The notes beneath the pieces were generated by a model. It had not been told where the DNA came from, made no database searches, and worked only from the letters and a program-made list of their open reading frames with translations. Positions 3,709 through 63,828 of a DNA stretch of 64,000 bases are shown piece by piece. Numbering within the stretch: the stretch's first letter is position 1; every line of letters starts with the position of its first letter. The position numbers were made by a program, and so were the translations under genes. Where the stretch lies: NCBI GenBank assembly GCA_964526225.1, contig CAZGLL010000006.1, positions 1,328 to 65,327 of the forward strand, read 5' to 3'. Origin of the DNA: an uncultured Desulfurococcales archaeon. Its GTDB lineage: Archaea > Thermoproteota > Thermoprotei_A > EX4484-217-1.

Positions 3709-3724
3709 GGAGGTTGTTCGGGAA

Positions 3725-43784: not shown

Positions 43785-43825
43785 ACAAGAACACGTAATT
43801 TATATTTATTTATTCATGACATAAT

Positions 43826-46293: not shown

Positions 46294-46828
46294 GCTTTTC
46301 AAGTTTAAATGATAGATTTCTAATGTAGTTTTCTACAAACTCCTTATCGTCAACCATTTTTAAACCATCACTAATAATAGTCTTTATGTTTTCGAGAAAA
46401 CAATCTAGCTTAAGCATGTTTTCTTCAACATTTGAAATATCTTTTTCGAAAATCTCTCTATACTCATTAAGTGCTGTTCCTACAGCCTTCTCCATAGCAA
46501 GTACGAATATTTTCCGTTCTTCTTCTAAATCAACAAGTCTATGGTAATCAAGTAATGCATATATGTAATCAAATATTTCTAATGCGTATTTTAGATCATT
46601 TAAATCTATAGTGCTTAAATCTACTCGTGATGCTTCCTCAGCCCTTTTCAGAATGATCTGCCTATCAGTTCTTAAATTATCAATAATTGCCAAAAACCTT
46701 CTGAGGTAGAGTTCATTGCTTGTTTTAAAGTAGTTTTTAAGACTTATTTTCGCTTCATTTATTCTTTTAGCGTGCTTCTCAACAATATTTTCTAAATCAC
46801 TATAGATTTTGAGAATTCTATAATACAT
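46280..46828 (-). CDS. Hypothetical helical protein
   Basis: 182-aa ORF, co-oriented with glyS and the DPBB gene; no motif recognised. Confidence 0.55.
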   Translation of the reverse strand: MYYRILKIYSDLENIVEKHAKRINEAKISLKNYFKTSNELYLRRFLAIIDNLRTDRQIILKRAEEASRVDLSTIDLNDLKYALEIFDYIYALLDYHRLVDLEEERKIFVLAMEKAVGTALNEYREIFEKDISNVEENMLKLDCFLENIKTIISDGLKMVDDKEFVENYIRNLSFKLEKPRET

Positions 46829-46840
46829 GATGACACCGCA

Positions 46841-47194
46841 TTATTGTATAGCAGCTCTTACTGTTGCTATACTATTGTCTGCTATTCCCTCTCTCTTTAA
46901 TTGCTCTAAATTACACCATACCTCATTTATAGGTACATTTTCATCTACTATTACTGAGAGTTTAAGTTTCCTCTTCCTGGCAACAACGATCTCTAAAGCA
47001 TTTGTAATGTTTAATTCCTTAGCTAATGATGGATTTATTTTAGCGAAACCCTCCTTAACATCAGATAGCGCTCTAGTTCTTATTCTTCTTTCGCGTTTCA
47101 CCTTTTCCTTACCTAAACTACCAGCAGGGGGGATAACAGCCACTAAGGCTTTAATGTCAAGCTTTTTCTCCTCTTTTCCCTCATTTTCAATCAT
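46841..47194 (-). CDS. Stand-alone double-psi beta-barrel (Cdc48-N-like) protein
   Basis: GFAKINPSLAKELNI...LEIVV...VDENVP...EVWCN...GIADNSIATVR mirrors Cdc48 Nn-domain spacing. Confidence 0.55.
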   Translation of the reverse strand: MIENEGKEEKKLDIKALVAVIPPAGSLGKEKVKRERRIRTRALSDVKEGFAKINPSLAKELNITNALEIVVARKRKLKLSVIVDENVPINEVWCNLEQLKREGIADNSIATVRAAIQ

Positions 47195-47270
47195 GGCTTA
47201 GAAACACCTACTTTACTAGACTAGCCTCTGAGTTTTTTACTTAAGATAGGGTCTATTTAAAATTTAAAAA

Positions 47271-49022
47271 CTACTTTTCAATAGGAACACCGAGATCTTT
47301 AAACTCTAAACGGTACTTTAGGTACTCGGGTATTTTAACGTAGATTTCTTCTATAGGTGCTCTAACTTGCTCCCATGTGTCTCTGTTCCTAATTGTAACA
47401 GTGTTGTCTTCCATTGTTTGGTAATCAACAGTTATTGCTAATGGAACACCTATTTCGTCCGCTCTCGCATATCTTCTCCCTATATTGCCTGATTCATCAT
47501 AAATAACTCTTAGTCCTTCCTTCTTAAAGTTCTCATAAATTTCTTTGGCTATGGAAACTAACGGTTCTTTACTTACGAGAGGAAACACAGCTAAACTTAT
47601 TGGTGCAATATCTCTTGGAAGTCTTAAAATAACTCTACCATTTTTCACAGTATAGGCGTACTCTAACGTAGCATATAGGAGTCTTTCTGCACCAAACGAT
47701 GGTTCAACAACGTGCGGTATGAATCTTTTGCCTTTAGCAATCTTTTTAACCTTAACTATTTTGAAGCACTCCGGTCCTAAACTTTTACCTGCTAATTCAA
47801 CATAGCCTTTAGCCTTAAGTTCGGCTAACATAACGTTTTTATCTTTTTTTGAGAAAGCATTAACTATTTTCCTACATTCTTCCTTAGAATATTCTTTCTC
47901 TAAAAGCTCCCTATTTATATCTAATTCCTCAACCAATATTTCTCTAGGTTCGTTAAACTGCTTATATACCGTAAGATCATTACCACTAAATCCCATATGT
48001 CTTGAAAGATCATAGTCGCTCCTATAAGAATGCCCAGCTACTTCTATCCAACCCCACCTAGAAACTTTAACTAGTTGGTCAAACGTTTGCGAAGAATAAT
48101 GAGCTCTTTCATGTGGAAGTTTGTCTTCAAACACTTGCTTATTTAAGGGTATTCCGAGTTCGTTAACGAATTTCTGTGCAAGCGCCATGAAGTATGCTAG
48201 CCACTCATTAACAATGTATCTTTTTTCAAGAGCTTCCTTAATGGTAACGGTGATGGGTTCTTTCTTCCCTTTAAGCTTATTTTCAGCTGTAATTAGTCTT
48301 ATTTCATCGTTTTCAACTTCGGAAATAAATGGACATTTAGGCTTTTCAGGGTCAAAGAAGAATTCTACTTCCATAATAGTGAATTCTCTTAGCCTAATAA
48401 CACCTTGTCTAGGCGATATTTCGTTCCTACCTACTCTTCCTATTTGCCCTATACCTAAAGGTATACGTCCTCTCATAGTGTCGTAAACTCTTTTGAAAGC
48501 GACGAACATTCCCTGGGCAGCTTCAGGCCTAATGAACCCTATGTTCTCACTATATGGTCCAATGGTTGTTCTGAAAAGTAAACTAAACGTTCTAACATCA
48601 CTTAATTGACCACCACATGATGGGCATTTGATGTTGTTTTCCTTAATAAGTTCCGTTAATTGCTGTGGCGTAAGTCCTTCAACGGATTTGCCTATTACAT
48701 CCTCAATTAAATGATCAGCTCTAAATTTTCTACCGCATCTTAAACATTCAACTATAGGATCTGTGAAATGCTCCAGATGGCCGCTTGCTTCTAAAACAGC
48801 TTTAGGCATTATCGCGGGTGATTCTATTTCAACAATGAAGTCTTGATGTTTAAGAATGAACCATTGCCTCCACTTATCCTCTATATTCTTCTTAAGAATG
48901 CTTCCTAAAGGGCCTAAATCTACAAATCCTGCAACTCCACCATATATTTCGTATGATTGCCAAAAGAACCCTCGCCTAACAGCTAGTTCTACTATTTTTT
49001 CGTAAAGATCTTTTTCTAACAA
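47271..49022 (-). CDS. glyS: Glycyl-tRNA synthetase (alpha2 type)
   Basis: RRGFFW, SGHLEHFTDP, RPEAAQG, FRNE-like RNEISPRQGVIRLREF, HVVEPSFG, IGRRYARADEIG. Confidence 0.97.
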   Translation of the reverse strand: MLEKDLYEKIVELAVRRGFFWQSYEIYGGVAGFVDLGPLGSILKKNIEDKWRQWFILKHQDFIVEIESPAIMPKAVLEASGHLEHFTDPIVECLRCGRKFRADHLIEDVIGKSVEGLTPQQLTELIKENNIKCPSCGGQLSDVRTFSLLFRTTIGPYSENIGFIRPEAAQGMFVAFKRVYDTMRGRIPLGIGQIGRVGRNEISPRQGVIRLREFTIMEVEFFFDPEKPKCPFISEVENDEIRLITAENKLKGKKEPITVTIKEALEKRYIVNEWLAYFMALAQKFVNELGIPLNKQVFEDKLPHERAHYSSQTFDQLVKVSRWGWIEVAGHSYRSDYDLSRHMGFSGNDLTVYKQFNEPREILVEELDINRELLEKEYSKEECRKIVNAFSKKDKNVMLAELKAKGYVELAGKSLGPECFKIVKVKKIAKGKRFIPHVVEPSFGAERLLYATLEYAYTVKNGRVILRLPRDIAPISLAVFPLVSKEPLVSIAKEIYENFKKEGLRVIYDESGNIGRRYARADEIGVPLAITVDYQTMEDNTVTIRNRDTWEQVRAPIEEIYVKIPEYLKYRLEFKDLGVPIEK

Positions 49023-49120
49023 CTCCTTAGCACCGTGGACAACATTATGTTAATATGGTGCTAACTACTACTAAAAATAACGCTACTAAAAATACTTATG
49101 CTCATAGGGGGTTGATGCAC

Positions 49121-50020
49121 ATGGTTAAAATGGACATTTACATTTCAAATGAGAGAAGGGTTTTCGGCGGTTTCACCGTACCGTATGAGAAAGCAAAGTA
49201 CATTATACTAGGTGTCCCTTTTGAACACTCCCTAACCTATAAGACCGGTACTAGTATTGCTCCATTTCGTGTAAGAGAAGCTTCAGAGGCCATAGAGTCA
49301 TTCTCTCTAAGAGCAAAGTACGACTTTGACAAATGCCCTGTAGCTGATGTTGGGGACGTAGTGGTTGTACCAGGTGATGTTCATCAGACACTTTCGCGTA
49401 TTTCTAATGTAGTAGAAAACCTCGTTAATGATGGAAAAATCCCTGTACTCATTGGCGGAGAACATACAATTACCTACGGTGTTATTAGGGCTCTTAGAAA
49501 GCATAGTCCATGTGTAATAGTGTTCGATGCGCATTTTGATTTGAGAGACAAGTATTTAGGTTACAAATTCTCTCATGCCTCAATTATGAGGAGAATATGT
49601 GAAACATTAGGTACAAGAAAAATGATGTTCATTGGTGTTAGAGGATTTAGTGAGGAAGAATATGTCTATGTTAGGCAGAGAAACATAGCTTATGTTACAA
49701 GCGTTCAATTGTTAAATGAATCTAAAGCAGCATTGAAAATTATAAGGAGCTTCTTAAATAACTGTAGAAAAACATATGTTACCATAGACATGGACGTTTT
49801 CGATCCCTCATATGCTCCAGGTGTTGACAATCCTGAGCCAGAGGGAATTACACCGACAATATTCTTTGACATATTATTTAACATCATAGACAATAGAACT
49901 ATAGGCTTAGATGTTGTAGAAAGTTCACCATTAGTAGATGTTAATGATGTTACGAGCGTTTTAGCTGCTAAAGTTATTAAAGAAGCAATAATTTATCACT
50001 ATGTTAAAACATTTAAATGA
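49121..50020 (+). CDS. speB: Agmatinase (ureohydrolase family)
   Basis: GGEHTIT, DAHFDLRD, SHAS, TIDMDVFDPSYAPGVDNPEPEG. Confidence 0.93.
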   Translation: MVKMDIYISNERRVFGGFTVPYEKAKYIILGVPFEHSLTYKTGTSIAPFRVREASEAIESFSLRAKYDFDKCPVADVGDVVVVPGDVHQTLSRISNVVENLVNDGKIPVLIGGEHTITYGVIRALRKHSPCVIVFDAHFDLRDKYLGYKFSHASIMRRICETLGTRKMMFIGVRGFSEEEYVYVRQRNIAYVTSVQLLNESKAALKIIRSFLNNCRKTYVTIDMDVFDPSYAPGVDNPEPEGITPTIFFDILFNIIDNRTIGLDVVESSPLVDVNDVTSVLAAKVIKEAIIYHYVKTFK

Positions 50021-50176
50021 TTAAATAGCCTTTACCCTTCTAATCTTAGGAGGCCTAACTTTATAAAGAATCTTTGCACCACAGTATGGACATCTTATCC
50101 CCGGCAAAATCTCTAGCTCTTTAGTGTCAATTATTCTTCCACAGTTAGCACACTTATACTTCACAGTCATGGACAT
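50021..50176 (-). CDS. rpo12: RNA polymerase subunit Rpo12/P (51 aa; absent from the ORF track)
   Basis: [13 protein letters not shown]...[25 protein letters not shown]. Confidence 0.93.
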
Positions 50177-50300
50177 TCTAAATATCCTCTTTGTAACTTC
50201 TCCGTTAAAAACGTGTTACATCTACTATAAAAATTTATAAGCTGTTTCATAAACATCTATTTCGTAGAAACTAAAATTTTAGGGTGGATGGTTTAAAAGA

Positions 50301-50618
50301 ATGTTTGAATTCGAAAACCTAGGTATAGGTGGAGGAGGTCTTCCACCAGAATTATTTCAGGAAATAGCTAAGGAAGAATTGCTGATACGTATAAGGGTTG
50401 AGAAGCGCAAATGGGGCCGTGAAGTAACGATAATTGAAGGTCTAAACGACCCATCCATTGATTTAAAGGAAATGGCTGCTAAGCTAAAGTCAAAACTTGC
50501 ATGTGGCGGTACAGCTAAAAATGGGAGAATAGAGTTGCAAGGAAATCATAAGGAACGTGTTAAGGAACTCTTAGTTGAAATGGGGTTTCCCGAGGAAAAC
50601 ATTATAATAGTTGATTAA
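50301..50618 (+). CDS. sui1: Translation initiation factor aIF1 (SUI1)
   Basis: [17 protein letters not shown]...[10 protein letters not shown]...IELQGNH. Confidence 0.95.
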
Positions 50619-50743
50619 GAATAGTTGGTGAGGGATAGTATTTTATCGCGGACAACAAGCAATATGCAGAAAAAGGGTAATTTAGTTATTATGTGTTATG
50701 TGAGCTAATCACACTTTAGCTTATTTTTTCATTTCTAAACTTT

Positions 50744-51694
50744 TCATTGTGGAGGTAATGGTACCTTAAGTTCTCTAACTAATTCTTTATATCTGTTCCT
50801 AACAGTCACTTCAGTTACTCCAGCTACTTGAGCTATTTCTTTTTGAGTTCTCCTTTCATCTTCTAGTAGTGAAGCAATATATATTGCGGCTGCTGCTAAA
50901 CCTGCAGGGTCTTTGCCAGCAGTTATTCCTTTCTCTTCAGCTCTCTTGAGAATTTCAGCAGCTCTTTTCATAACGCTACCGCTTAATCCTAGTAAAGCAC
51001 CTATTCTCGGAACATAGTCTATTGGATCAGCTATTGGAACTCTTAACTCAAGCTCTCTAAGCAATAACCTATAGCATCTAGCTACATCTTTCCTACCAAC
51101 CTTAGTGTACTTCACTATTTCATCAAGTGTTCTAGGAATCTTAAGCCTTCTACATGCAGCATATATTGCTGCTGCAACAACAGACTCTATACTTCTACCT
51201 CTCACTAGACCTTTTTCAACAGCTTTCCTATAAATTACAGCTGCTTCTTCTCTTACATTTCTAGGTAATCCTAGCTGTGAAGCTATTCTATCTAATTCAT
51301 TCATTGCTTGAGCAAGATTACGATCAATACTTGACTGTATCCTAGCTCTTATCTGCCACTTTCTCCAACGTAGGATTTCAAGTCTTCTCCTAGGTTCTAA
51401 ATGTCTTCCGAAAGCATCACGATCACGCCAATCAATAATAGTTGAGAGTCCTTTATCATGAACGGTTTGCGTTAAAGGTGAACCTACACGACTTCTCTTC
51501 TCTCTTTCTTCAGGAGTGAAAGCTCTCCATTCAGGGCCTTGATCAATTGCTTTCTCGCTAATAACGGTTCCACAATCTGCACATACATACTGACCACGTT
51601 CATGATCATAAATTATATTTGTACCTCCACAAACTGGACATTTCGTAATGGCTTCTCCAACATTTTTTTCAGCAGGAAAACCCGGACTAACCAT
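50744..51694 (-). CDS. tfb: Transcription initiation factor IIB
   Basis: CPVCG...CADCG Zn ribbon, [33 protein letters not shown]. Confidence 0.97.
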
Positions 51695-51827
51695 GTTTAA
51701 CCACCTTTAAACCTCATAAGTTAAACTTATATAGAATCCCACTTCTGCCTTAAGTCCTCTTATAAGTTATTTTATTTAAACTTTTCGGTAAAATTTATAA
51801 ATAATGCGTTGTGTAATGTAAACGGCG

Positions 51828-53378
51828 TTAAATATTATTTTCGGTTAGCTTAAGCAGTGTTTCCTTAACTTTAGAAACCCCTATAGCAACAATTAATCTT
51901 CCAAGCCTAGGACCATAGGGTTGACCTAGTAAGGCTTCGTAAAGTACCTTAAAGAGTTCTTTCGGATTAACATTATATTGCCTAGCTACTTCATACACTA
52001 GATTATGTATTTCAATATCCTTCATGTCCTCTCTTAATTTCTCAGCAAAGCTTCTTACAACATTTACGTGCTTACTTATTGGGGTGGGATTAAACTTAAC
52101 CCTATATTCTCTAGGAATAATATCTAATCTCACCCAATTCTCGACATATGTTCTAAGATTATCTATTTCTCTGGGGAAACCTAGTTTTTCTTTAACTACT
52201 TTCCAATCACCATATATTTGATATATAACCAGCACGTCTGTGAAGCTAACATGAAGTGATGCTTTCTCGGATTCTGAAGCAAGCATATAAGCATGTACTT
52301 TCTTAGCTAACCCTGCTTCCTTTACTTCAGCTTTCTTTTCGAAAATTAACCCTACATTTCTAAATTCCTCATAGAGGCTGAGTAAAAATCTTGGATCATC
52401 CTTAAAGTTCTTGTTTTCTTCAAGATCGCCTCTAAATAGGAAGTATTTTAGAACCTCCGGCGGAACTAGTGATAGAATATAGTTTAAGTCTCCTAAGCCC
52501 TTACTTTTACTCATCTTTCTTCCTTTAAGAAGTATGAAGCCATATTTGAATCCTATTGGCGGTTCTTTTCCGAAAAGCTTTCTGTGAATAGCTACCGCAG
52601 TATCCCAGCTCCCCCCTCTAGTGTGGTGATCTACACCTGCCCCTTCAACATCGACACCTAAGAAATCTTGCCTACTGGGCCAGTCTAATCTCCAAGCAAG
52701 CTTCCACATACGATCTCTTATCGCTACTTTACCTTTATACCCACATCCTTTAGCGTATCCTACGTCCTTATCACATACGTACTCTATCGTTCCTTCTAAA
52801 AGATTAAACCCTAGAACCCTTGTTGTTGCTATTTTACCGCATTTTTCACATATTGGAAGAGCAATGTCCTTCCATGACCGAGGAAGTTTTCTTAAGGACG
52901 TTTCTTCGAGAATTCTTTTAACAATATCTAGCCTTTCAGCAAAAAACACAAGGTAATCATCGTAAAATCCTTCGGAGTACAGCTCATTTGATCCTACGAT
53001 TTCATCTGGTTTAACACCGAACTCCTCCATAATCTTTGTTGTTTCCCAAAGAAAATGTTCACCATAGCTTCTATGACATCCATAAGGGTCAGGAACGTGT
53101 ACAAGAGGTTTTCCTAAATGGGGCTTTAACATTTCACTATATTCCCTAAGTGTTGCTGGAATACTGTCAAAAGCATCCATTATGTCGCCTACGAAAACAA
53201 AGTACGCATCAACCCCTCGTCTTCTAAGTTCTTTAACCAGAGCCCATGGATAAAGGAATTCGCAAACAGTACCTAAGTGAGGAGGACCGCTCGTTGTCAT
53301 TCCAGCAGCTACGACGATAGCTTTTCCCTTTTCTTTAACAACCTTGTCCGCTAATTTAACAACCCAATGTTCAACCAT
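51828..53378 (-). CDS. lysS: Class I lysyl-tRNA synthetase
   Basis: SGPPHLG (HIGH), KLAWRLDWP, GVDH, KMSKSKG. Confidence 0.93.
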   Translation of the reverse strand: MVEHWVVKLADKVVKEKGKAIVVAAGMTTSGPPHLGTVCEFLYPWALVKELRRRGVDAYFVFVGDIMDAFDSIPATLREYSEMLKPHLGKPLVHVPDPYGCHRSYGEHFLWETTKIMEEFGVKPDEIVGSNELYSEGFYDDYLVFFAERLDIVKRILEETSLRKLPRSWKDIALPICEKCGKIATTRVLGFNLLEGTIEYVCDKDVGYAKGCGYKGKVAIRDRMWKLAWRLDWPSRQDFLGVDVEGAGVDHHTRGGSWDTAVAIHRKLFGKEPPIGFKYGFILLKGRKMSKSKGLGDLNYILSLVPPEVLKYFLFRGDLEENKNFKDDPRFLLSLYEEFRNVGLIFEKKAEVKEAGLAKKVHAYMLASESEKASLHVSFTDVLVIYQIYGDWKVVKEKLGFPREIDNLRTYVENWVRLDIIPREYRVKFNPTPISKHVNVVRSFAEKLREDMKDIEIHNLVYEVARQYNVNPKELFKVLYEALLGQPYGPRLGRLIVAIGVSKVKETLLKLTENNI

Positions 53379-53483
53379 AAGCGCTTATTCACCTTAATTC
53401 TGGAAGGAATTCATGCGAACTAATAAGACCTCATACCTTATAAGAGTTACACTTAAAACTCACCTATAATTATTCTCTCTCGA

Positions 53484-53607
53484 AGCCGGGTCGTCTAGCG
53501 GTCAAGGATGCGGGGCTTTGGCCCTTACCTGACCGTCTAAAATTCGGGAGCGGTCAGGTAAGGGAAGACCCCCCGTGACCGGGGTTCGAATCCCCGCCCG
53601 GCTACCA
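53484..53607 (+). tRNA. tRNA-Gln(TTG) with 48-nt 37/38 intron (53522-53569), A1-U72 pair, CCA encoded
   Basis: AGCCGGG/CCCGGCT acceptor, CGGGG-CT-TTG-G|intron|C-CCCCG. BHB: CTTT pairs with GAAG. Confidence 0.95.
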
Positions 53608-53641
53608 TAACCAATAACTTTCTTCAAGGCGTAACTAGGCG

Positions 53642-54769
53642 ATGATAGATAATATTTTAGCTAAGATTAGGGCTAAAGACCCGTTCTACGATGATGGCCA
53701 TGTTCTTAGCAGTATGGTTTCTAAGCCCCTAGAAATTGCCGTTAAAGCGTTCTTACAATTCATAGATACTAATGCTGGAGATTATAGCATATTTAGAAAC
53801 TTAGCTAGGATGGAAAGATATGTTATCCGAAAGCTATCCATAATTCTCGGGTGTGAAAGTAAACGCTGTAGCGGATACATTGTGTCAGGCGGTTCGGAAG
53901 CAAACTTTTTATCACTATGGCTAATTAGGAATTTTAGTAAAAATGTCAAGGAGATAAGAAGGCCTGAAATAGTGGTTTCCCCCACAACACACTACTCAGT
54001 GATTAAAGCAGCCGATGCTTTAAATATAAAGGTGAAGTACGCTAGCTTAAATGAGAATTACAAAATGGATGTTTCTTCTGTTCCCGAGAAAATATCGAAA
54101 AACACAATAGCAGTAATAGGCAATGTAGGTTCTACAGAACTAGGCTTCGTAGATGACATACAAGCTCTTTCAAAAATAGCAAGTGAATATAATGTAGCAT
54201 TACATTTAGATGCAGCCTATGGAGGATTCATTCTGCCCTTCATAAATTCCCATATTTTCCCAGGTTTCCGTTGCGAAAACGTATTAACAATAACCTCAGA
54301 TCCCCATAAGACCCTTTTCACACCTATACCTTCGGGAGGGTTTTTCGTAAAAAACAAAGCTTTATTGAAATACATTAGATTTAAACCTAAATATCTTAGC
54401 AAAACACCTTCAGAAACACTTATTGGAACACGTTGCGGAGCCTCTATAGCAGCCATTTATGCTGTAATCCGCTTTGTAGGTCTGAATAAAATAGGTAAGA
54501 TTCATAAGAAATGCTATGAAAACGCATTATACTTTTACAATAAAATCGTTAAGTCAGGCTTATTCAAAACATTCGGTAAACCTGAAACCCCCATAGTATG
54601 TTTTAAACCCTACAGTGTTAATGTAAATGATGTTTTGAAAAAACTTAGAACTAAGGGATGGATTATTTATAGGTGCAACGTGGTTAATGGATTAAGAATT
54701 GTTTTCATGCCTCATGTAAGCAGAGAAGTAATAGATGAGTTCTTTAGTGACCTCCTAGAATCTGTTTAA
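53642..54769 (+). CDS. mfnA: PLP-dependent tyrosine/aspartate decarboxylase (group II)
   Basis: LSSM, SGGSEAN, HYSVIKAA, GSTELG, HLDAAYGG, SDPHK (PLP Lys), GTRCGA. Confidence 0.9.
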   Translation: MIDNILAKIRAKDPFYDDGHVLSSMVSKPLEIAVKAFLQFIDTNAGDYSIFRNLARMERYVIRKLSIILGCESKRCSGYIVSGGSEANFLSLWLIRNFSKNVKEIRRPEIVVSPTTHYSVIKAADALNIKVKYASLNENYKMDVSSVPEKISKNTIAVIGNVGSTELGFVDDIQALSKIASEYNVALHLDAAYGGFILPFINSHIFPGFRCENVLTITSDPHKTLFTPIPSGGFFVKNKALLKYIRFKPKYLSKTPSETLIGTRCGASIAAIYAVIRFVGLNKIGKIHKKCYENALYFYNKIVKSGLFKTFGKPETPIVCFKPYSVNVNDVLKKLRTKGWIIYRCNVVNGLRIVFMPHVSREVIDEFFSDLLESV

Positions 54770-54860
54770 TATGTTTTATTTCCTTCCTAATGACATAGGC
54801 TGATGCTGTTGAAGATGTTATTTCCTCTTCATATCCGCATCTAGGACATTTAGCATAGGT
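54770..54860 (-). repeat. Exact 91-bp copy of an internal part of tfs (58918-59008)
   Basis: tatgttttatttccttcc...tttagcataggt is identical at both loci and encodes TYAKCPRCGYEEEITSSTASAYVIRKEIKH on the minus strand. Confidence 0.95.
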
Positions 54861-55054
54861 TCTCTGTTAGAAAGCCTCATTAATTCGGCGAAAATTATTG
54901 GCATGAAAATATCATTTATTGCGATTTGTAGTTCAGCTATAGTTGCTTGCTCATAACTCCATATATGGCTTAGATCCCGTACAATAATTATTGTTGCAAA
55001 AATAATGGGAACAGTCATTACGGCGATAATTACAATATCATACATTAAGATCAA
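54861..55054 (-). pseudogene. 3'-truncated PsiE-like membrane protein, fused out of frame to the tfs fragment
   Basis: Two TM segments and ...INDIFMPIIFAELM, then an abrupt switch to tfs-derived sequence at 54860. Confidence 0.5.
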
Positions 55055-55102
55055 TAATCTACCGTTTTATGTATGAAAATAGTTATGAAAAATAGCATAG
55101 TT

Positions 55103-56851
55103 TTATTCTTCTACTATGTAGTTTGGTACTATTGGTGGTAGGTTTGTTTTCTTTGCGTAGAGTTCATTTATTACTCTATGTAGAATTATTAGCAATAATA
55201 TTCCTACCGGTAACAGTATTAGTGGTGTTGTTATTCCGATAGCATATAGTAAGTATAGTATTATTCCTACACTTGCTGCTAGGATAGCGTATGGTATTTG
55301 GGTGTTAACGTGGTCTATGTGGTCTGCTCCGCTGTACATTGAGGACATTATAGTCGTATCGCTTATTGGGCTACAGTGGTCTCCGAAAATCCCCCCTGAG
55401 AAAACTGCTGCAATAGATGCGTAAGTTACTAAGTAAGCCATGTCGAGACTTTCCGGGTACTGCTGTAGTGCAAGTTTCCAAGCTAACGGTATAGCTAGTG
55501 GCATCATAATACCGAATGTTCCCCAGCTTGTACCTGTCGTGAAAGAGATGAACATTGATGCTAGAAATATTACTAATGGTGCTACTAAAGCCGATACCCT
55601 AGCCGATACAGCAGCACTTACTACGAAATCCGCAGTTCCAACAGCATCCACAGCGCTCTTAATACACCATGCTAGCACCATTACTGTATTTGCAAAAACC
55701 ATCAAATACATTCCTCTAATAGTATACTCCATGGCCTTCGAAAACGAAAGCGACCTATACATTAGTGTAAAGGCTAAAGCAAGAACATATGCGATGAAGC
55801 TTCCCCACAGCAATGCTGTTGCGGAATCAGCATTCATTAATGCTTCACCGAATGGAATAGTCCACCATTCAGCCACGCCTGCACCAGTATACCACATTCC
55901 AAGCAATGTTACTACGACCAGGGCTAGCACTGATACTGCGAACACCCATGGGGGAGTTATTTTTTCAGACCTAGGTTCGCCCAGTACTGTTTCAGTAGGC
56001 ATTAATGGTTGAGCACCGTCACGTAGAACTTTTCCTTCTTTAACAACTCTATGTTCTGCTTTAAGCATTGGACCGAAATGTCTTCTCGTAAGAACAACTA
56101 GTAGTACTAGGATAATTGCTAGGATAGAGTAAAATCTGAAAGGCACAGAGGATAGCCATGCTGCATATGGACCTATTGTTGGAGCTACCTTTAAGACACC
56201 TTCGCTAACCTCTTCTGTTAGCGAATCAAACGCGTCCTGTATCAGACCAACCTCATAACCTATCCATGTTGACACTATTGCTAACCCAGCTACAGGCGCT
56301 GCTGTTGAATCAACAATGTAGCTTAGTAGTTCACGGCTAACTCTTGACCTATCCGTTAGAGGTTTTGAAGCATTTCCGACAATGATGGTATTAGTATAGT
56401 CATCGAAGAATATTATTACTCCTAGTAACCAAGAAATAAAGCTTGCTCCTTTAGCGCTTCTCACCTTCCTACTAATTGCTTTAGCTAAAGCATGCATTGA
56501 ACCTGAGGCATATAGTAAACCAATAAACGCTCCCACAACGAAGTTGAACACTATTATTGTTGCATTCCATGAGTCCGTAATATTTTCAACAATCCATGCG
56601 AGGCTTTGTCCTGTGGCATTTATTGGGTTATACCCGGTAGCCATTAATGCGCCAATCCATATACCTGCGAAAAGTGCTGGCAGTACTTGTCTTGTAACAA
56701 TAGCCAACACTATAGCTAATATTGGCGGTAGAAGAGGAAATATAACATAAGGTCTTTCTGGCGTTGGCCCACTATACGCCAGTAGACTGATTATTAAAAT
56801 CATAACAACAGTTATGATTTTAACCATATTTGACGGCTTCATAAAATCCAC
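55103..56851 (-). CDS. NhaC-family Na+/H+ antiporter-like (probable amino-acid) transporter
   Basis: IFFDDY, YIVDSTAAPV, SFTTGTSWGT, FGDHCSPISDTTIMSS, DHIDHVNTQIPYA. Confidence 0.92.
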   Translation of the reverse strand: MDFMKPSNMVKIITVVMILIISLLAYSGPTPERPYVIFPLLPPILAIVLAIVTRQVLPALFAGIWIGALMATGYNPINATGQSLAWIVENITDSWNATIIVFNFVVGAFIGLLYASGSMHALAKAISRKVRSAKGASFISWLLGVIIFFDDYTNTIIVGNASKPLTDRSRVSRELLSYIVDSTAAPVAGLAIVSTWIGYEVGLIQDAFDSLTEEVSEGVLKVAPTIGPYAAWLSSVPFRFYSILAIILVLLVVLTRRHFGPMLKAEHRVVKEGKVLRDGAQPLMPTETVLGEPRSEKITPPWVFAVSVLALVVVTLLGMWYTGAGVAEWWTIPFGEALMNADSATALLWGSFIAYVLALAFTLMYRSLSFSKAMEYTIRGMYLMVFANTVMVLAWCIKSAVDAVGTADFVVSAAVSARVSALVAPLVIFLASMFISFTTGTSWGTFGIMMPLAIPLAWKLALQQYPESLDMAYLVTYASIAAVFSGGIFGDHCSPISDTTIMSSMYSGADHIDHVNTQIPYAILAASVGIILYLLYAIGITTPLILLPVGILLLIILHRVINELYAKKTNLPPIVPNYIVEE

Positions 56852-57165
56852 CTATTGATTATACATAATTTTTTGATTTCAATAATATAAAAACCTTGTT
56901 ATATGGTTATTATAAGAGCCTTGTTTGGCTTAACTAATAGAACAAAGCATTAAAACCTATTGTAACATCAGCTATTAGTGCTTAATTCTATTTGAATACA
57001 CCAAGTAATAAAATACCCTATAATTAAATTATTTATGAATACATTTCAGGTTCTGCACCAATTTACATATTCGTAAATCCTCACGTCCTACCTTTATAAG
57101 CTAAAAATGTTTAAACAAAATACATAATATCCGCATGTAACATATTTAGTTAAGGGAATTATGTA

Positions 57166-58245
57166 ATGTCTGGGCACTCTTTTTATTCTAAAAAGGAAGT
57201 TCTCGAAATAGTTTATAAATATACTGAAAACAGAAAGGTACCAGCTCATCCACTTCCCTTATCGTATCTTGATGAGTTAGAAGTTATTTGGGGAAAACGT
57301 TGGGGAGCTCAATCTGAGATAGGGAAGCTAAGGGAGGTTATGGTAATTAGACCAGGCGATGAAGTAGCTCCCCCAGAGGAAGACCTTGTTTTCTACCAAT
57401 TTGAGAAAAGAGTAGATGTTGAAAAAGTTAAGAGAGAATTTGAGGGTTTAATTGAAGCCATGCAGAAAGAAAATATTAAGGTTTACGATATCAGAGAGCT
57501 TTTAAGAACCGAAATGGATATTGATGAATGGATGCTTAAAGAACCATATGGTCTCCCCCATGCTAGGTTTGGTGGTCCAGGGGCTAGAGATGTAGGGTTA
57601 GTGGTTAATGGAGGAGCAATTATAGGTAGAATGTCTCTCCCATATAGACGGGGAGAAGAGTATGTTACGATGAAAGCATTAGCTAAATTGGGGGTACCAA
57701 TTCTATATACAATTAATGGTAACGGTCTATTTGAAGGAGGTAATGTAGTATGGCTTGACCCAAAACATGTTATTATAGGGAAAAGCATCAGAACAAACCA
57801 AGAAGGCATAGACCAAGTTTCATATATTTTGAAACGTTGTGGAGTCGAAGAAATATATGTAGTTCCCATTCCCGGATACCTATATAACACAAAATGGCCT
57901 GCTGGAGGATTTGCCCATCTTGATTGTGTCTTTGGATATGTTGATGACGGTCTAGCCGTTATATATCCTCCCGGTGTACCGTACGAGTTCATCGAGTATT
58001 TAAGAAGCAAAGACATAAATTTAGTTGAAGTACCACCTAATGAAGCGAGATGGTTAGCATGTAATACGTTAGCGTTAGAACCAGGAAAAATTATTCTTCC
58101 GCAGGAGTTTAAAGAAACAATACGTGCTCTTGAAAGAGAAGGAGTTGATATTATCGCAATACCATGGGAAGAGAGCAAATACCTAGGTGGGGGACCGCAC
58201 TGCTCAACCCTACCTTTAATAAGAGATCCAGGTCCCAAGCTCTAA
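57166..58245 (+). CDS. Amidinotransferase / arginine deiminase / DDAH-family enzyme
   Basis: SEIGKLREVMV, RD, FEGGN, HLDC, GGGPHCSTLPL (catalytic Cys). Confidence 0.88.
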   Translation: MSGHSFYSKKEVLEIVYKYTENRKVPAHPLPLSYLDELEVIWGKRWGAQSEIGKLREVMVIRPGDEVAPPEEDLVFYQFEKRVDVEKVKREFEGLIEAMQKENIKVYDIRELLRTEMDIDEWMLKEPYGLPHARFGGPGARDVGLVVNGGAIIGRMSLPYRRGEEYVTMKALAKLGVPILYTINGNGLFEGGNVVWLDPKHVIIGKSIRTNQEGIDQVSYILKRCGVEEIYVVPIPGYLYNTKWPAGGFAHLDCVFGYVDDGLAVIYPPGVPYEFIEYLRSKDINLVEVPPNEARWLACNTLALEPGKIILPQEFKETIRALEREGVDIIAIPWEESKYLGGGPHCSTLPLIRDPGPKL

Positions 58246-58410
58246 ATATTTTTATCTAAACTATGTTCGAGCTTTTATCATTAATTTTCATCAACTAATT
58301 ATTAAAGAAATCTAGAGGTAGTCAAACCCCCTCGTCTCGTATATCTTGTAAGAATACCCCTCATATCGATAAACCCAGTATCAACTAAGTACATTGATTT
58401 ATTTAGTAGG

Positions 58411-58445
58411 CTCTGCGACCGAGGTTGAACCCCGCCCGATTATCA
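58411..58445 (+). repeat. Decayed copy of the tRNA-Gln 3' exon (attR-like)
   Basis: 28 of 37 positions match 53571-53607 (7 transitions, 2 single-base deletions); similarity continues into the 3' flank (cataacc...cttcttc). Confidence 0.8.
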
Positions 58446-58465
58446 TAACCTTAGCTTCTTCTTTA

Positions 58466-58708
58466 ATGACATATAAGCTCTTTCAAAAATACCAAGCAAA
58501 TATAGTGATTTTAGTTGCAACTTCTGAAGAATTTATTTATCCTTCATAAATTCCCGCATTTTCAGACTTCCATTGCAAAAACATATTAGTAATAGCCTCA
58601 GATCCTCATAAAATCCTCTTCACACCTTTACCTTTCGGAGGGTTTTTCGTAAGAGACGAAGTAGAAGATATGTTCCATAGTAACCTCTTAGAAGCCATTG
58701 GTGTTTAA
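58466..58708 (+). pseudogene. Decayed mfnA paralog with large deletions
   Basis: 58591-58652 matches 54289-54350 at 54 of 62 nt (DPHK motif); in-frame TAA; C-terminal EVEDMFHSNLLEA matches EVIDEFFSDLLES. Confidence 0.85.
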
Positions 58709-58717
58709 GGTCTTATT

Positions 58718-59065
58718 TCACTCATACTCTCTCCAAGTATAACCACATTTCGTACATCTGTAAAATCTCGTAGGAGGTTCATCAGCAGCCCTAGTCTGCA
58801 TCATCCACACATATGCTTCCCTATTACCACATTTAGGGCATTCAACACCTTTAGCAATAGATGCTATTCTAGGCATTTTCACATTCTCATCAATAACCAC
58901 TATTTTCTCCTTATCTGTATGTTTTATTTCCTTCCTAATGACATAGGCTGATGCTGTTGAAGATGTTATTTCCTCTTCATATCCGCATCTAGGACATTTA
59001 GCATAGGTCCTTTTATTTTTCCTATGTGGAACCATTATACTACCGCATTTAGGGCAGAATCTCAT
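58718..59065 (-). CDS. tfs: Transcription factor S (transcript cleavage factor)
   Basis: Two Zn ribbons (CPKC..CPRC; CPKC..CTKC) and the acidic QTRAADEPPT hairpin. Confidence 0.95.
   Translation of the reverse strand: MRFCPKCGSIMVPHRKNKRTYAKCPRCGYEEEITSSTASAYVIRKEIKHTDKEKIVVIDENVKMPRIASIAKGVECPKCGNREAYVWMMQTRAADEPPTRFYRCTKCGYTWREYE
58918..59008 (-). repeat. Source copy of the 91-bp repeat, inside tfs
   Basis: Identical to 54770-54860. Confidence 0.95.
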
Positions 59066-59175
59066 AATGCAGTAACACCTCGCTAATGCTTAGTAACTAC
59101 TGAGACTACATTAGTACGTGTTGTTTTACATAAAGTTTATTGTTTACCCGATAGAGGAACAATATAGCGATAGCT

Positions 59176-60444
59176 ATGGAGTCATGCTTCATTAAAGGCT
59201 ATAAGCAAATATACGATGAAGTACATGGCTACATAGAATTTACAGAATCTGAGGAGAAAATAGTCAATAATCCATATTTTCAAAGGTTAAGAAACATAGC
59301 ACAGCTTAGTTTAACGTACTACATATATCCTGGAGCATCTCATACACGCTTTAGCCACTCAATAGGAGTAAAGCATGTTTCGGGAAAAATAGGAGAAATT
59401 CTTTGTAAACAAGGTTTCCTTTCACGTGATGAACTTAAGCTAATAAGGCTAGCTGGACTACTACATGATATAGGCCATTACCCGTTTTCACACATTCTCG
59501 AACACTCCTTTAAGGAACTTGGAGGACTAACCCATGAGGAACTTGGGGAGAAAATAATAACTGAAACTTCTATAAGCGATTCACTAAAGGCTGAAGGATA
59601 CAGTCCTAAAGAAATAGCAGATATTGCGAGAGGCAAACATAAAAATAAACTATACAACATGATTTTATCTTCAGATGTTGACGCCGATAGACTAGATTAC
59701 TTACTTAGAGATTCAATGCATACAGGAGTAGCCTACGGAAACATCGATGTTGAAAGAATAGTTAATACAATAACCGTTGATAATAATGGAAACCTGGCGG
59801 TTCTTAGGAAAGGATTGGAATCCATAGAAAACCTGTATGTTGCTCGCTTACACATGTACAGAAGCGTTTACATGCATAAGTCAGTTGTAAGTTTCGAACT
59901 CATGCTTTCAAGAGCATACACCATTCTTTATCGGAAAATAGGGTCACAGGAGGGAATAATAGGGCCCAAGGAACTTAATGAAATCCTTAATTCTGAAGAA
60001 TTCGTGTTCTTCGATGACCACTATGTACTCAATGTTTTAAGGAAATATAGGAAAGATAGGAGATTAAGTAATGTTGAGAGAAAACTTTTCGAAATGATAT
60101 TGTTTAGAAGACCTTTAAAAACGGTTTTCAATGAAAGTAGTTTTTCAAAAGCAGAAATTAAGCGTAAACATCAACAATTAATGGAGTGTTTCAGAAATAT
60201 AGAAGACTCTGATGCAACTAACTCTACAATGGTATACTATGGTGAAATCGAATTCTTCTCTAAAAAGAACGCTATTTCCGTTGTTGATAAGCCAAGGGAA
60301 AGCGGAATTCCCATTTATAATTTAAAAAAGATCACTCTACTTAGCCTACTTCCGACAGTATATGCGGTACTTAGGGTTTACACGTTTCCCGAGAAATCTA
60401 CCGAAGTGAAGAACATAATTAGTAATTGTTTCGGAAAATCATAG
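59176..60444 (+). CDS. HD-domain phosphohydrolase (SAMHD1/dNTPase-like)
   Basis: IYDEVHG, FQRLRNIAQL, HTRFSHSIG, LLHDIGHYPFSH, DADRLDYLLRDS, VYMHK. Confidence 0.92.
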   Translation: MESCFIKGYKQIYDEVHGYIEFTESEEKIVNNPYFQRLRNIAQLSLTYYIYPGASHTRFSHSIGVKHVSGKIGEILCKQGFLSRDELKLIRLAGLLHDIGHYPFSHILEHSFKELGGLTHEELGEKIITETSISDSLKAEGYSPKEIADIARGKHKNKLYNMILSSDVDADRLDYLLRDSMHTGVAYGNIDVERIVNTITVDNNGNLAVLRKGLESIENLYVARLHMYRSVYMHKSVVSFELMLSRAYTILYRKIGSQEGIIGPKELNEILNSEEFVFFDDHYVLNVLRKYRKDRRLSNVERKLFEMILFRRPLKTVFNESSFSKAEIKRKHQQLMECFRNIEDSDATNSTMVYYGEIEFFSKKNAISVVDKPRESGIPIYNLKKITLLSLLPTVYAVLRVYTFPEKSTEVKNIISNCFGKS

Positions 60445-60527
60445 GTTAAAGAAAAATATTAGCAAGAATAAAGTAATATATTGCCTCCGTAGAAGTGCTC
60501 AATAATATCTATTAGGTGTTAGAAATT

Positions 60528-62060
60528 ATGGAAACTACAGGTATGTTATTAGCTGTTAAAGTTCTCGATGTTGATACCGGAAAAGTTAGAACAGTAATTA
60601 TAAATTCTGATGATGCTTCCTTTAAAACCATTAAACCTTACGATAGAGTTAGGATTTCCTTTGGTGATAAGTCAAGAACGGCTATGGTTTTTACATCGAA
60701 AACCATTGTTAAAAGAGGCTATGTTGCAATACCTAGATCTTTAGCGAATGAGCTAGGGGTTAAGGAGGGAGATAGAGTAGGAGTGAAAGTAATTACGCAA
60801 CCGCTTTCTCTAAGCTACATAATTAAGAAACTTAATGGAGAAAAACTTCTTCCCGAAGAAATACGTGCGATAATAAAGGATGTTGTCGACGGTAACCTAG
60901 GAGATGTAGAAATGGCTGCTTTCCTTTTAGCACAATATTTCCACGGAATGAGCTCTGAAGAACTTGAATCACTAATTAGAGCTATGGTTGATACCGGAGC
61001 TAAAATCGAGTTTGAAGAACCAGTACATGATGAACATAGTATCGGTGGCGTTCCTGGAAATTCAAAAGTAGCCTTACTAACCGTTTCCACAGTAGCCTCG
61101 ACAGGATTACTAATACCTAAGACAAGCAGCAGAGCAATAACAAGCCCTGCCGGAACCGCAGATACAATGGAGATTTTCGCTCCTGTATCGTTCTCTCCAA
61201 CAGAAATAAAGGAAATAGCTACTAAAACTAAAGGCTTAATCGCATGGGGTGGTGCTTTAGATTTAGCTCCAGCCGATGACATATTCATACATGTTGAGCA
61301 TAGGTTAATGATAGATCCGCAAACACAAACGGTCGCTAGTATTTTAGCGAAAAAATTAGCAATGAGCGTATCATACCTCGTAATTGATATTCCTGTAGGT
61401 AAGGGAGCAAAAGTTGAATGTATGGATAAAGCTGAAAAGCTTGCCTCATTATTCCTAGACCAAACAGCTAGACTAGGCATTAAAGCTAAATGCGCTATAA
61501 CATATGGAGGACAGCCAGTAGGTTACTACATAGGGCCAGCGTTGGAAGCTAAAGAAGCCCTAGAATCTATGATCAATAGAAAAGGTCCTGGAAGTCTTAT
61601 TGAAAAAGCACTAGGTATTGCTGGTTTACTTTTCGAATTAACGGGTAAAGCGAAAGCGGGAACGGGGCTGGAATATGCTAAGGAACTGTTCTATAAAGGC
61701 AAAACCTATGAAAAATTTAAGGAAATAGTTGAAGCACAAGGAGGAAATCCAAATGTTAAACCAGACGATTTACCTGTAGGAGATAAAACAATAACTTTCG
61801 ATGCACCAACAGATGCCTATGTAACACATGTTGATAATACAGCAATAACCCTTATAGCTAGAGCAGCAGGAGCACCATTAGATAAGGGAGCTGGTGTTAG
61901 AATTCATGTTAAAGCCGGAGATAAGGTAAAGAAAGGAGACCCACTATATACAATCTACGCTGAATCATCAACAAAACTATCGCAAGCCTATTCTTTGTCG
62001 TTGAAGCTTAAACCTATAACTCTTGAAGGAATGATTTTAAAGGCAATACCAGAGTACTAG
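60528..62060 (+). CDS. AMP phosphorylase (thymidine phosphorylase family)
   Basis: N-terminal DPBB-like domain, HSIGGVPGNSK, PKTSSRAITSPAGTADTME, LAKK, RAAGAPLDKGAG. Confidence 0.93.
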   Translation: METTGMLLAVKVLDVDTGKVRTVIINSDDASFKTIKPYDRVRISFGDKSRTAMVFTSKTIVKRGYVAIPRSLANELGVKEGDRVGVKVITQPLSLSYIIKKLNGEKLLPEEIRAIIKDVVDGNLGDVEMAAFLLAQYFHGMSSEELESLIRAMVDTGAKIEFEEPVHDEHSIGGVPGNSKVALLTVSTVASTGLLIPKTSSRAITSPAGTADTMEIFAPVSFSPTEIKEIATKTKGLIAWGGALDLAPADDIFIHVEHRLMIDPQTQTVASILAKKLAMSVSYLVIDIPVGKGAKVECMDKAEKLASLFLDQTARLGIKAKCAITYGGQPVGYYIGPALEAKEALESMINRKGPGSLIEKALGIAGLLFELTGKAKAGTGLEYAKELFYKGKTYEKFKEIVEAQGGNPNVKPDDLPVGDKTITFDAPTDAYVTHVDNTAITLIARAAGAPLDKGAGVRIHVKAGDKVKKGDPLYTIYAESSTKLSQAYSLSLKLKPITLEGMILKAIPEY

Positions 62061-62614
62061 AGAGACACTTTTTTCAACAAAAATATTTTACCGTCACTTG
62101 CCGCAATAACTTCCACATCACGGTTAACATAAGCCCAACCTACTGTTGCACAAACAATGGCATCTAAAATGTCTTTACTTAGTTTTTCCAAAACAACATC
62201 ACCTAGGTTAATGTATTTTGAAAGAGCATCCTTGACACTATTTAATCCTGTGTTTTTAAGTGCGCTTCTAGGATGTGTTTCTAAGACTTTTATCCCCCTT
62301 TTCTCACAGTAATCCTTAATCTTTAATGCTCTAAAAACAAGCTTTCTCATACCCTTCCAACTTGGAGGAAGCACTTTAAATCCTCTCTTAATCATTTCCC
62401 TATCAACTTCCCTAAACCCCTTGGACATAGAGAGCGGAGCATCTATTACAACAACTTGGGGTTTAAGCTTTCTAACAATGTACTCAATTTCCTCATCACC
62501 GTGGACTATTCCGTATTCTACAAGAACACCGTCTATAACTATAGCGTAACCTGTGGGGTTCTTAGGGGATCCTGAAAGGTCAAGACCTAGAATTCTCCAT
62601 TCCCTAAACATCAT
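62057..62614 (-). CDS. DUF429 family RNase H-like predicted nuclease
   Basis: GLDLSG, IDAPLS, FREVDR, ETHP, DAIVCA. Confidence 0.85.
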   Translation of the reverse strand: MMFREWRILGLDLSGSPKNPTGYAIVIDGVLVEYGIVHGDEEIEYIVRKLKPQVVVIDAPLSMSKGFREVDREMIKRGFKVLPPSWKGMRKLVFRALKIKDYCEKRGIKVLETHPRSALKNTGLNSVKDALSKYINLGDVVLEKLSKDILDAIVCATVGWAYVNRDVEVIAASDGKIFLLKKVSL

Positions 62615-63113
62615 GCTTCCCCAACATTTTTTCTAAGATGTGCTTTAAATCATAAAAGTCTTTGACGTCAACGTTCATTTGGATAAAAACTACATCTCCA
62701 ATTTCCTTAAGCACTTCGTTTAAGTGCGTTTTTCTATCATCAACATAAACTATTTCACATGGTTCAACTGTTAACTTATACTTTTCAAAAGCTTTCTTCA
62801 TCATTTTACCTTTGTGAGGATGGAATTCAATACAATGGCCATCAAAGAGCTCGTATATTCCAAATGCTTTCAATGCTTCATAAGCTATTTCGGGGATGTT
62901 CCAGCTTAAACTGTAAACCTTCAATCCAACGCTCTTAGCCCATTTTAAGAACTCTATAACGCCCGGTTTTAGCTTCACAAGAGAACCTTCACTATCAATT
63001 ATTTCGAAATCACTTACCCTTTTAAATGGTGGTTTATGCAATGAAATATCGTGAGAAGACCATACTGTTCCGTCTAGGTCTAAGAATACCACTTTTGGCG
63101 AACATTTAACCAT
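62604..63113 (-). CDS. Magnesium-dependent phosphatase 1 (HAD family)
   Basis: LDLDGTVW, SLSWN, HPHK, YVDDR. Confidence 0.9.
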   Translation of the reverse strand: MVKCSPKVVFLDLDGTVWSSHDISLHKPPFKRVSDFEIIDSEGSLVKLKPGVIEFLKWAKSVGLKVYSLSWNIPEIAYEALKAFGIYELFDGHCIEFHPHKGKMMKKAFEKYKLTVEPCEIVYVDDRKTHLNEVLKEIGDVVFIQMNVDVKDFYDLKHILEKMLGKHDV

Positions 63114-63672
63114 AAGCTTCCCTCGATTTTGAAATTATTTCATTGACTTCGTCTGCTATTTTGGATAGAGGTTCGTTCTTAATAAGTTCCTTAATTTCCT
63201 TCAGTGTGTTATTGATTATCTCTTCTACTCTAGAATATCCGTTGGCTAAATATCTTTTACCTTGAATATGGGTTGCAAGTATTTCAGCTAACCTCGCAAC
63301 TTTAGCTTCATAAGTTTTTAACTCATTAAATTCCCTAACTAGGCTAGCTATTTCGCCGCCAAAAGCTTCTGTAGAAACTTTTTCCTCAAAATCCCTTGTC
63401 CTAACTATAGCGTCTTTTACATACTTAACAATGTCCCCTGTAATAGCCTCCGGTAAATCATGAAATAACGCAAGCACCGCTGCCTTATTAATATTAATAT
63501 TTACACCCTTATCTCTAAGCTTACTAGCTAAATAAAAAGCTAAAATCGACGCTTCAAAAGAATGCCCAGCTACAGTTTCCCCTATAGATGCCGGGATTCC
63601 GCGAAGCATCCAACCAGTTCTAACAGTGTTCTTTACTGCTTCAAGAGACTTAAGTAGTGTTTCAATACCCAT
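63106..63672 (-). CDS. HD-domain protein (YfbR/HDDC2-like 5'-nucleotidase)
   Basis: RTGWMLRG...ETVAGHSF...ALFHDLPEAITGDI. Confidence 0.88.
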   Translation of the reverse strand: MGIETLLKSLEAVKNTVRTGWMLRGIPASIGETVAGHSFEASILAFYLASKLRDKGVNININKAAVLALFHDLPEAITGDIVKYVKDAIVRTRDFEEKVSTEAFGGEIASLVREFNELKTYEAKVARLAEILATHIQGKRYLANGYSRVEEIINNTLKEIKELIKNEPLSKIADEVNEIISKSREAYG

Positions 63673-63828
63673 TAAATTACCCCCTATTGTACCGTTTACC
63701 TTTTAATAACACTATCTATTAATGATTACGATTTTAATATCTGTAACAATGTTTAGAAATAATTTATATAGTCTAGAAGGTTTCTTAAACAACAACATTA
63801 CACGATAAAGGCATAGGTGATTTCAATT

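Follow-up and report, generated by a model that had tools for sequence, protein, structure and literature searches.

The window analysed here is a 64,000-nt stretch of contig CAZGLL010000006.1 from an uncultured Desulfurococcales archaeon, a lineage of the Thermoprotei, and its source is hydrothermal sediment and vent metagenomes. On the plus strand, an intron-containing tRNA gene of the short-intron type (53484..53607) is followed by a full-length mfnA gene for a PLP-dependent decarboxylase (53642..54769; TIGR03812, 351 bits with a cutoff of 299). The 3′ end of mfnA runs into what we read as the relic of a second tfs gene (54761..54865), which has its tfs sense on the minus strand. Beyond it lie an orphan hydrophobic open reading frame (ORF) of 78 amino acids (54818..55054, minus), a gene for an NhaC-family antiporter with weak ArcD-like similarity (55103..56851, minus; PF03553, E = 2e-62) and a gene for an enzyme of the arginine deiminase (ADI)/DDAH superfamily (57166..58245, plus), which matches PF02274 and PF19420 and falls below the cutoffs of PRK01388 and arcA. 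These are followed by a displaced 3′ fragment of a tRNA gene with the start of its spacer (58416..58461, plus), a pseudogene remnant of mfnA (58458..58708, plus), an intact tfs gene (58718..59065, minus) and an HD-domain gene (59176..60444, plus), which forms the right flank; all four are native. The intact, resident tfs encodes a transcription factor S (TFS) of 115 amino acids (TIGR01384, 112.8 bits with a cutoff of 64.75), with an Rpb9-type zinc ribbon at residues 1–35 (PF02150) and a TFIIS-type zinc ribbon at residues 75–112 (PF01096). An exact-protein look-up of this TFS returned no match, although the cluster includes a sequence identical to it, P0247.

The two tfs sequences are connected by a direct repeat, in which positions 54770–54860 equal 58918–59008 at 91 of 91 nt; the copies lie 4,148 bp apart, the first base beyond the repeat is mismatched (T versus C) and no shuffled version of the window contained a match. 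The left copy is antisense relative to mfnA and begins at the base directly after the mfnA stop codon (TAA, 54767–54769). The right copy lies on the minus strand within tfs and, as mapped by inspection, spans codons 20–49 and the first base of codon 50. The first-pass annotation, made from the letters alone, had reported this perfect identity, the start of the repeat one nucleotide past the stop codon and the divergence, with indels, of the neighbouring duplicated mfnA and tRNA remnants (78–84% and ~80% identity, respectively), and all of this was borne out. Its remark on recombination between the copies, by which the cargo and C-terminal ribbon of TFS would be lost, is likewise correct in its geometry: the product would be mfnA, the junction, one repeat copy and tfs codons 1–19, without the TFIIS-type ribbon or the cargo. 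Because the native mfnA is destroyed and recombination between the repeats would cut tfs, both parts of the inserted block are now hard to lose.

A repeat in a window derived from metagenome data might be a product of assembly or binning, either collapsed or chimeric, and the first-pass annotation had listed an artefact among its alternatives. This repeat is not resolvable by k = 31 unitigs, and the left and right halves of the cargo meet near 56630, a point that varies between strains. Against this stand independent k = 141 MEGAHIT contigs from another assembly (ENA ERZ27248349). Contig L001, which with L011 represents a sister strain, spans the lysyl-tRNA synthetase (LysRS) gene, tRNA, mfnA, left copy, 78-amino-acid ORF and antiporter gene with unique flanks, and is identical to window positions 43642–55633 except for two single-nucleotide polymorphisms (SNPs). 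Contig L012 runs from the 5′ end of the antiporter gene through the ADI gene, tRNA fragment, mfnA remnant and tfs with the right copy to the HD and PYNP genes, also with unique flanks, at 99.986% identity to window positions 56609–64000. As a k of 141 exceeds the 91 nt of the repeat, the sequence of each copy is determined independently, and both copies read through into unique DNA on both sides. In run X1, Logan k = 31 unitigs are broken at each copy, precisely 30 nt in and 30 nt out; the four arms have similar depths (115, 123, 99 and 129), which is what a single genome with two copies of a repeat would give. The left junction is also present in several runs. An artefact is refuted by the independent contigs that span each copy, and we give it next to no credence.

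Related genomes reveal the layout that preceded the repeat. In at least seven related contigs there is no insert, and the order is tRNA and mfnA (rightward), tfs (leftward) and HD (rightward); in the ancestral locus, LysRS (leftward) precedes the tRNA. mfnA converges directly on tfs in L002 (GTDB metagenome-assembled genome Thermoprotei AUK086), in the JGI contigs L003, L004 and L006, and in L005, L013–L016 and L017; the empty site also occurs in contigs of runs X2, X5 and X6, and the order mfnA–tfs–HD–PYNP is kept in relatives. In the window, ~4.8 kb (53576–58415) are inserted between the tRNA and its displaced 3′ fragment. On the empty-site contig of run X6, 226 nt separate the points equivalent to window positions 54759 and 54772. 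Since mfnA and tfs are convergent in every relative, the antisense piece of tfs behind mfnA corresponds to inherited synteny minus 226 nt.

The tRNA at the left bound of the block was matched by Rfam (53484–53604, 47.5 bits) and missed by ARAGORN; its anticodon, read by inspection, is UUG, and its exons are identical across all relatives. The 3′ part of this gene and the start of the following spacer (53576..53625, plus) recur in diverged form at 58416–58461, on the same strand, with ~80% identity and four small gaps in a local alignment. In the spacer motif CATAACC-TTA(G/A)CT, the displaced fragment (CATAACC-TTAGCT) agrees with the sister lineage L013, unlike the full copy.

The full-length mfnA has a different history from its surroundings. 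The nearest sampled sister lineage, L013/L014, has third-position identities of 80–87% to the window: 84% for TFB, 80% for LysRS, 87% for tfs and 85% for PYNP. The more distant L002, L006 and L003 reach 77%, 74%, 72–79% and 66% for the same four genes, and 61–69% for the HD gene, which is a pseudogene in L013/L014 and not comparable there. For full-length mfnA, these three relatives reach 88–89%, with no value for L013/L014, in which the gene is a pseudogene. Relative to L002, LysRS has 133 third-position mismatches in 517 and mfnA 44 in 376 (Fisher P = 1.7e-7), and the switch in divergence is located at the tRNA. As the full-length gene stands nearer to the distant L002 clade than the genome does to its sister lineage, mfnA is, judged by its third-position divergence, a xenolog that appears to derive from the L002/L003/L006 clade. 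The best donor match in a GTDB scan and a second metagenome scan, L017 and L018 included, was only 92–93% identical at the nucleotide level.

The 3′ end of this gene is also unusual. Homology to orthologues ends at 54760 (..LLE), and where relatives add four residues (…LLEVISM*, …LLEVISR* or …LLEAIGV*) the window has …LLESV*. A breakpoint therefore lies within the 3′ end of mfnA, and the last two codons and stop (54761–54769) are junction sequence, not the natural stop. The remnant on the other side of the block corresponds to 54145–54359 and 54728–54769 of the full copy, with two large deletions. Informative quartet sites favour pairing the remnant with the L013 pseudogene and the full copy with L002 by 6:1:2; the remnant, tfs and the HD gene are native. 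A recent duplication of mfnA within the genome was considered and rejected, as identity between the remnant and the full copy is ~78%, and the remnant is just as far from the L002 clade. In L013, positions 2175–2965 and 3311–4315 hold mfnA and HD pseudogenes in place without an insert, as also in L014 and L007, so this mfnA copy has been lost from the L013 lineage. L007 was at one point a candidate for a second island-bearing lineage, which was dismissed when the longer contigs L013 and L014 showed an empty site.

The inserted block contains part or all of the tRNA, full-length mfnA, the tfs relic, the 78-amino-acid ORF, the NhaC/ArcD-type antiporter gene and the ADI-like gene. The last two suggest an arginine-catabolism module. 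Positions 55054–58288 are 87.7% identical to L008/L009, which belong to a different genus and have housekeeping genes only about 70% identical to those of the window (mfnA 69%, HD/PYNP 73% at the nucleotide level); there, an antiporter–ADI–HicB cluster lies ~8.5 kb beyond tfs. From 55634 rightwards, sister-strain contig L001 carries DNA that is 97.7% identical to L008, HicB included. These identities indicate horizontal and recent exchange of the cargo. The recombination breakpoint at 55634 falls within the antiporter gene, the HicB-like antitoxin gene of L001 is missing from the window, and the ADI allele of the window is only ~90% identical to that of the sister strain. The 78-amino-acid ORF has its last 14 codons and stop inside the repeat, in a frame that differs from that of tfs. 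It matches no Pfam or NCBIfam family, had no relatives in the metagenome scan and may be spurious or newly formed; positions 54861–55053 have no homologue in any fetched locus except the sister-strain contigs L001/L011.

An intact tRNA gene and a displaced 3′ fragment that bracket a foreign block are the signature of a tDNA island (PMC4383910). The window has a tRNA gene with a displaced fragment on the same strand, and its ~4.8 kb fall within the 2–200 kb considered for such islands. The content is foreign to relatives, as indicated by the empty sites, the synonymous history of mfnA and cargo that is 88–98% identical to that of a different genus. Like the tDNA islands defined for the Islander database (PMC4383910) and, for archaea, reviewed under tyrosine recombinases (PMC8371274), the block combines direct-oriented tRNA copies with metabolic cargo that relatives lack. 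Unlike them, it has no integrase: the ORFs from 53642 to 58415 yielded no integrase or recombinase domain, and the gaps are all 320 nt or shorter, which leaves no room for one. In further contrast, the tRNA copies are only ~80% identical, so the island is old and degenerate, and the block also holds the mfnA of the previous host and part of its tfs, and has replaced the native mfnA. GC content does not mark the block. The left limit of foreign DNA falls between ~53460 and 53640; native DNA comprises LysRS, upstream of the tRNA, on the left, and the tRNA 3′ fragment, mfnA remnant, tfs and HD gene on the right. As the tRNA has a short intron like that of L002 and L017, and not the long LAGLIDADG-bearing one of the sister, homologous exchange within the tRNA and integrase action are equally possible routes of entry.

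The tfs relic is a composite of TCTG, a TTTAA insertion, the 91-nt repeat and an edge of 4–5 nt, with ~96 nt of tfs in all. TCTG equals tfs 58914–58917 and is of the resident-type allele; the 5-nt insertion TTTAA follows, then 54770–54860, and the edge (54861–54865) has the allele of a foreign tfs. TTTAA supplies the mfnA stop codon; without it, the mfnA ORF would extend 10 codons into the relic and end ~8 residues longer. In the tfs frame, the relic is by inspection preceded by a stop codon and has no start codon, so no TFS peptide is expected from it. A minus-strand transcript of the antiporter gene and the 78-amino-acid ORF would contain the relic in sense orientation.

The alleles within the relic differ between its interior and its edge. 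Across the 91 nt, the resident tfs differs from L003 at 7 sites, from L013 at 10 sites plus a 3-nt indel, and from L008 at 23. At all 7 sites that distinguish L003, the relic interior has the resident allele, including states shared only with L013 (A at the first position of K23, and TCT at S35), at which L003 and L006 differ. At 54861 and 54864, the relic has A and G in the coding sense (AGA for Arg19, and a final G in codon 18), as do L003, L006 and L008; the resident tfs and L013 have G and A at these sites (AGG, and a final A in codon 18). The N-terminal part of the resident tfs is L013-like, with mismatches at 5 of 57 sites to L013 and ~13 of 57 to L003. A test for chimerism across the N-terminal, repeat and C-terminal parts of tfs, with L003 and L013 as references, was constrained by a C-terminal ribbon that is too conserved and by an L013 linker with many changes of its own. 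The relic itself is known only from two near-clonal strains, 2 SNPs apart in 12 kb, and a scan of viral contigs for the repeat core gave no match.

We propose that the left copy is probably a dead relic of a second tfs that came with the acquired mfnA and was overwritten by the resident tfs through gene conversion. Under this proposal, a foreign block of ~4.8 kb would have entered the ancestral locus at the tRNA gene, bringing an intact mfnA of another clade, part of the convergent tfs of the donor and cargo of the arginine-catabolism type. Its insertion would have pushed aside the 3′ end of the native tRNA together with the native mfnA, which then decayed beside the native tfs. The hitch-hiking tfs fragment would have lost its C-terminal 226 nt in a deletion that also clipped the last mfnA codons, and on its other side it would end at codon 18/19, where the cargo starts. 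Later, non-reciprocal homologous recombination with the resident tfs as template, 4.1 kb away at 58918–59008, may have overwritten the interior of the relic and ended a few bases before homology runs out. We infer the conversion event and its direction, the order of deletion and conversion, and the mode of entry of the block, for which candidates are an integrase that acted in trans or has since been lost and recombination anchored in the tRNA. What was observed comprises the repeat, the empty site of relatives, the foreign mfnA and cargo, the native remnants and tfs, and the allele mosaic of the relic.

The argument for conversion rests on age and on the mosaic. The relic arrived with the foreign mfnA, and the tRNA fragment has drifted by ~20%, so an unconstrained relic should differ from the resident tfs, both through the alleles it arrived with and through drift; for copies with more than 3.3% divergence, the probability of no difference in 91 nt is below 0.05. 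The first-pass annotation had reasoned similarly that a non-coding copy of the same age should have drifted. This holds for the tRNA fragment; for mfnA it needs a caveat, as L013 has an mfnA pseudogene without an insert and part of the decay of the remnant may therefore predate insertion. An identity tract that ends short of the limit of homology, with foreign markers at the edge, is as gene conversion from tfs to the relic predicts, and such a tract, flanked by markers of other ancestry, is seen here, on few sites. Of the two processes that the annotation had offered together, recent duplication or gene conversion, the mosaic pattern thus favours the latter. In the hyperthermophilic crenarchaeon Sulfolobus acidocaldarius, heteroduplex over hundreds of base pairs with mismatch conversion is documented (PMC3367456). 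Its resolution is patchy and tracts are often discontinuous (PMC3367456), so that outcomes other than the clean conversion of every difference across 91 nt are also expected. Other points also count against conversion. The block has no integrase, nor room for one, and its mechanism of entry is unproven; the foreign edge is only 4–5 nt long, and we estimate that it would arise by chance at ~0.1–0.4% per comparison, or perhaps 1–2% over several. A single island-bearing lineage is known, from two near-clonal strains, and with a best mfnA match of 92–93% the donor lineage is unsampled.

Identity could instead reflect recency alone, if the duplication of the tfs segment itself were very young and no later conversion were needed. 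Such a segment could arise by single-crossover (Campbell-type) or homology-facilitated illegitimate insertion with a junction in tfs, the heteroduplex being repaired at insertion, and the tRNA and mfnA remnants would owe their divergence to greater age or to earlier decay. Several observations make this possible: the small distance between the only two strains with the relic means that the junction need not be old, the mfnA pseudogene of L013 means that decay of the remnant need not date the insertion, the interior of the island is being replaced by recombination at present, and no difference in 91 nt is unremarkable below ~2–3% divergence. However, the displaced 3′ fragment of the tRNA is ~20% diverged, although it must have been whole up to the entry of the block; the remnant, tfs and HD gene are native and contiguous, which places the insertion point at the tRNA and not in tfs; a non-resident allele at the right edge of the relic directly adjoins 91 identical bases; and the displaced C-terminal part of the host tfs, expected beside the left copy, is absent. 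On balance we consider recency a serious but rather unlikely explanation. A related scenario, insertion into tfs of an island that carried its own tfs C terminus, was rejected, as the remnants are native and adjoin a native tfs without a break, and the foreign mfnA lies outside the repeats.

The perfect direct repeat also flanks ~4.06 kb that relatives lack, as would the attL and attR sites of an integrative element that targets tfs. Such an element should have a site-specific recombinase and leave the displaced part of its target at the far junction. We found neither an integrase nor a displaced 3′ part of the host tfs by the left copy, and no viral or proviral match. Moreover, the segment between the repeats ends in native DNA, with the tRNA fragment, mfnA remnant and tfs C terminus grouping with the sister, whereas the full-length mfnA outside the repeats is foreign and the true boundary of the block is at the tRNA. 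Duplicated attachment sites are thus largely refuted and very improbable.

The first-pass annotation had also raised the prospect that selection maintains the repeat, with an mfnA 3′ untranslated region carrying 91 nt antisense to the tfs mRNA and regulating TFS in trans. An RNA started nearby could do likewise, and selection, possibly together with conversion, would then keep the match perfect. The geometry permits this, with the relic directly behind the mfnA stop codon, and the perfect match contrasts with decayed neighbours. In archaea, oligo-T tracts serve as terminators. L002 has a T6 tract behind its mfnA stop codon; here this tract was lost with the 226-nt deletion, which makes read-through conceivable, and only TTTT-A-TTT is left at 54774–54782. 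But the orientation is inherited synteny and no new design, pairing works without 100% identity, so that selection does not predict a perfect match, and relatives manage without the relic. The strain comparison suggested in the annotation as a check found no conservation: the relic is absent beyond the two near-clonal strains, and a SNP within it, 54773 G>A, occurs in ERZ27248349 and as a branch in run X2 (two samples), so the match is already imperfect there. In tfs, the same change would replace the nearly invariant His49. An Rfam search of the region placed no RNA family at the relic, and a search of RNA runs returned no RNA-seq run containing the locus. Regulation in trans is therefore without support, and we regard it as improbable. 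Slightly less probable still is that the relic has been co-opted, through read-through RNA from mfnA (plus strand, antisense to tfs over 91 nt) or from the antiporter operon (minus strand, sense), with the repeat stabilizing its own island. If so, the relic would link the level of TFS to the metabolism of CoA or arginine, and pairing would stay perfect through repeated conversion from tfs. Recombination between the repeats to excise the island would destroy the only tfs gene, which would make the island self-stabilizing.

The feature is best read as something that genome evolution ordinarily leaves behind, and nothing points to a role in regulation. It resembles known processes, each with a difference. 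As in gene conversion or concerted evolution between a gene and a nearby paralogous fragment, and in heteroduplex mismatch conversion in S. acidocaldarius (PMC3367456), a perfect tract lies in a fragment of other ancestry, here with a template 4 kb away on the same chromosome and a tract that ends just inside the limit of homology; by contrast, conversion here is deduced from the sequences of one lineage, and the recipient is a 96-nt dead relic instead of a functional paralogue. As in xenologous gene displacement in situ, the acquired mfnA adjoins the decaying native copy and would functionally replace it, although in this case a piece of the adjoining gene came along with the incoming one and gave rise to the repeat. 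As with cis-antisense overlaps of convergent archaeal genes and trans-acting antisense small RNAs, the plus strand behind mfnA is complementary to the tfs mRNA, but the complementarity is fully explained by ancestry, is not conserved beyond near-clonal strains and matches no RNA family.

The locus therefore adds a new example of known processes, one that is clean and datable and comes from an uncultured hydrothermal lineage of the Thermoprotei. It suggests that a housekeeping gene, here mfnA, can be rescued or replaced through a degenerate island at a tRNA gene while its native copy decays, that hitch-hiking fragments of neighbouring genes generate repeats, and that gene conversion can give such a relic a young or selected look. 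A perfect non-coding copy beside diverged remnants need not imply function, and wider consequences would follow only if the relic were transcribed and active.

Further features of the locus vary among relatives. The tRNA intron (window 53522–53565) is polymorphic: the window, L002 and L017 have a short form (~45 nt), whereas in L003, L006 and L018 it is ~650 nt longer and encodes a 201-amino-acid LAGLIDADG protein, and in L013/L014 it is long with a degenerate LAGLIDADG ORF (86–117 amino acids). This pattern resembles that of a mobile tRNA intron carrying a homing endonuclease. Many Logan contigs from runs X1–X4 join both tRNA exons with differing skips of 25–53 nt (window 53516–53570); they represent tRNA genes that belong to other organisms of the community and have a different intron or lack one, and they account for a spike in depth at 53468–53701. 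In L006, positions 4297–4566 hold a tfs with an in-frame internal deletion of 78 bp (residues 39–64, in the linker), and mfnA is split into two ORFs; either these genes are really decaying or the assembly is error-prone.
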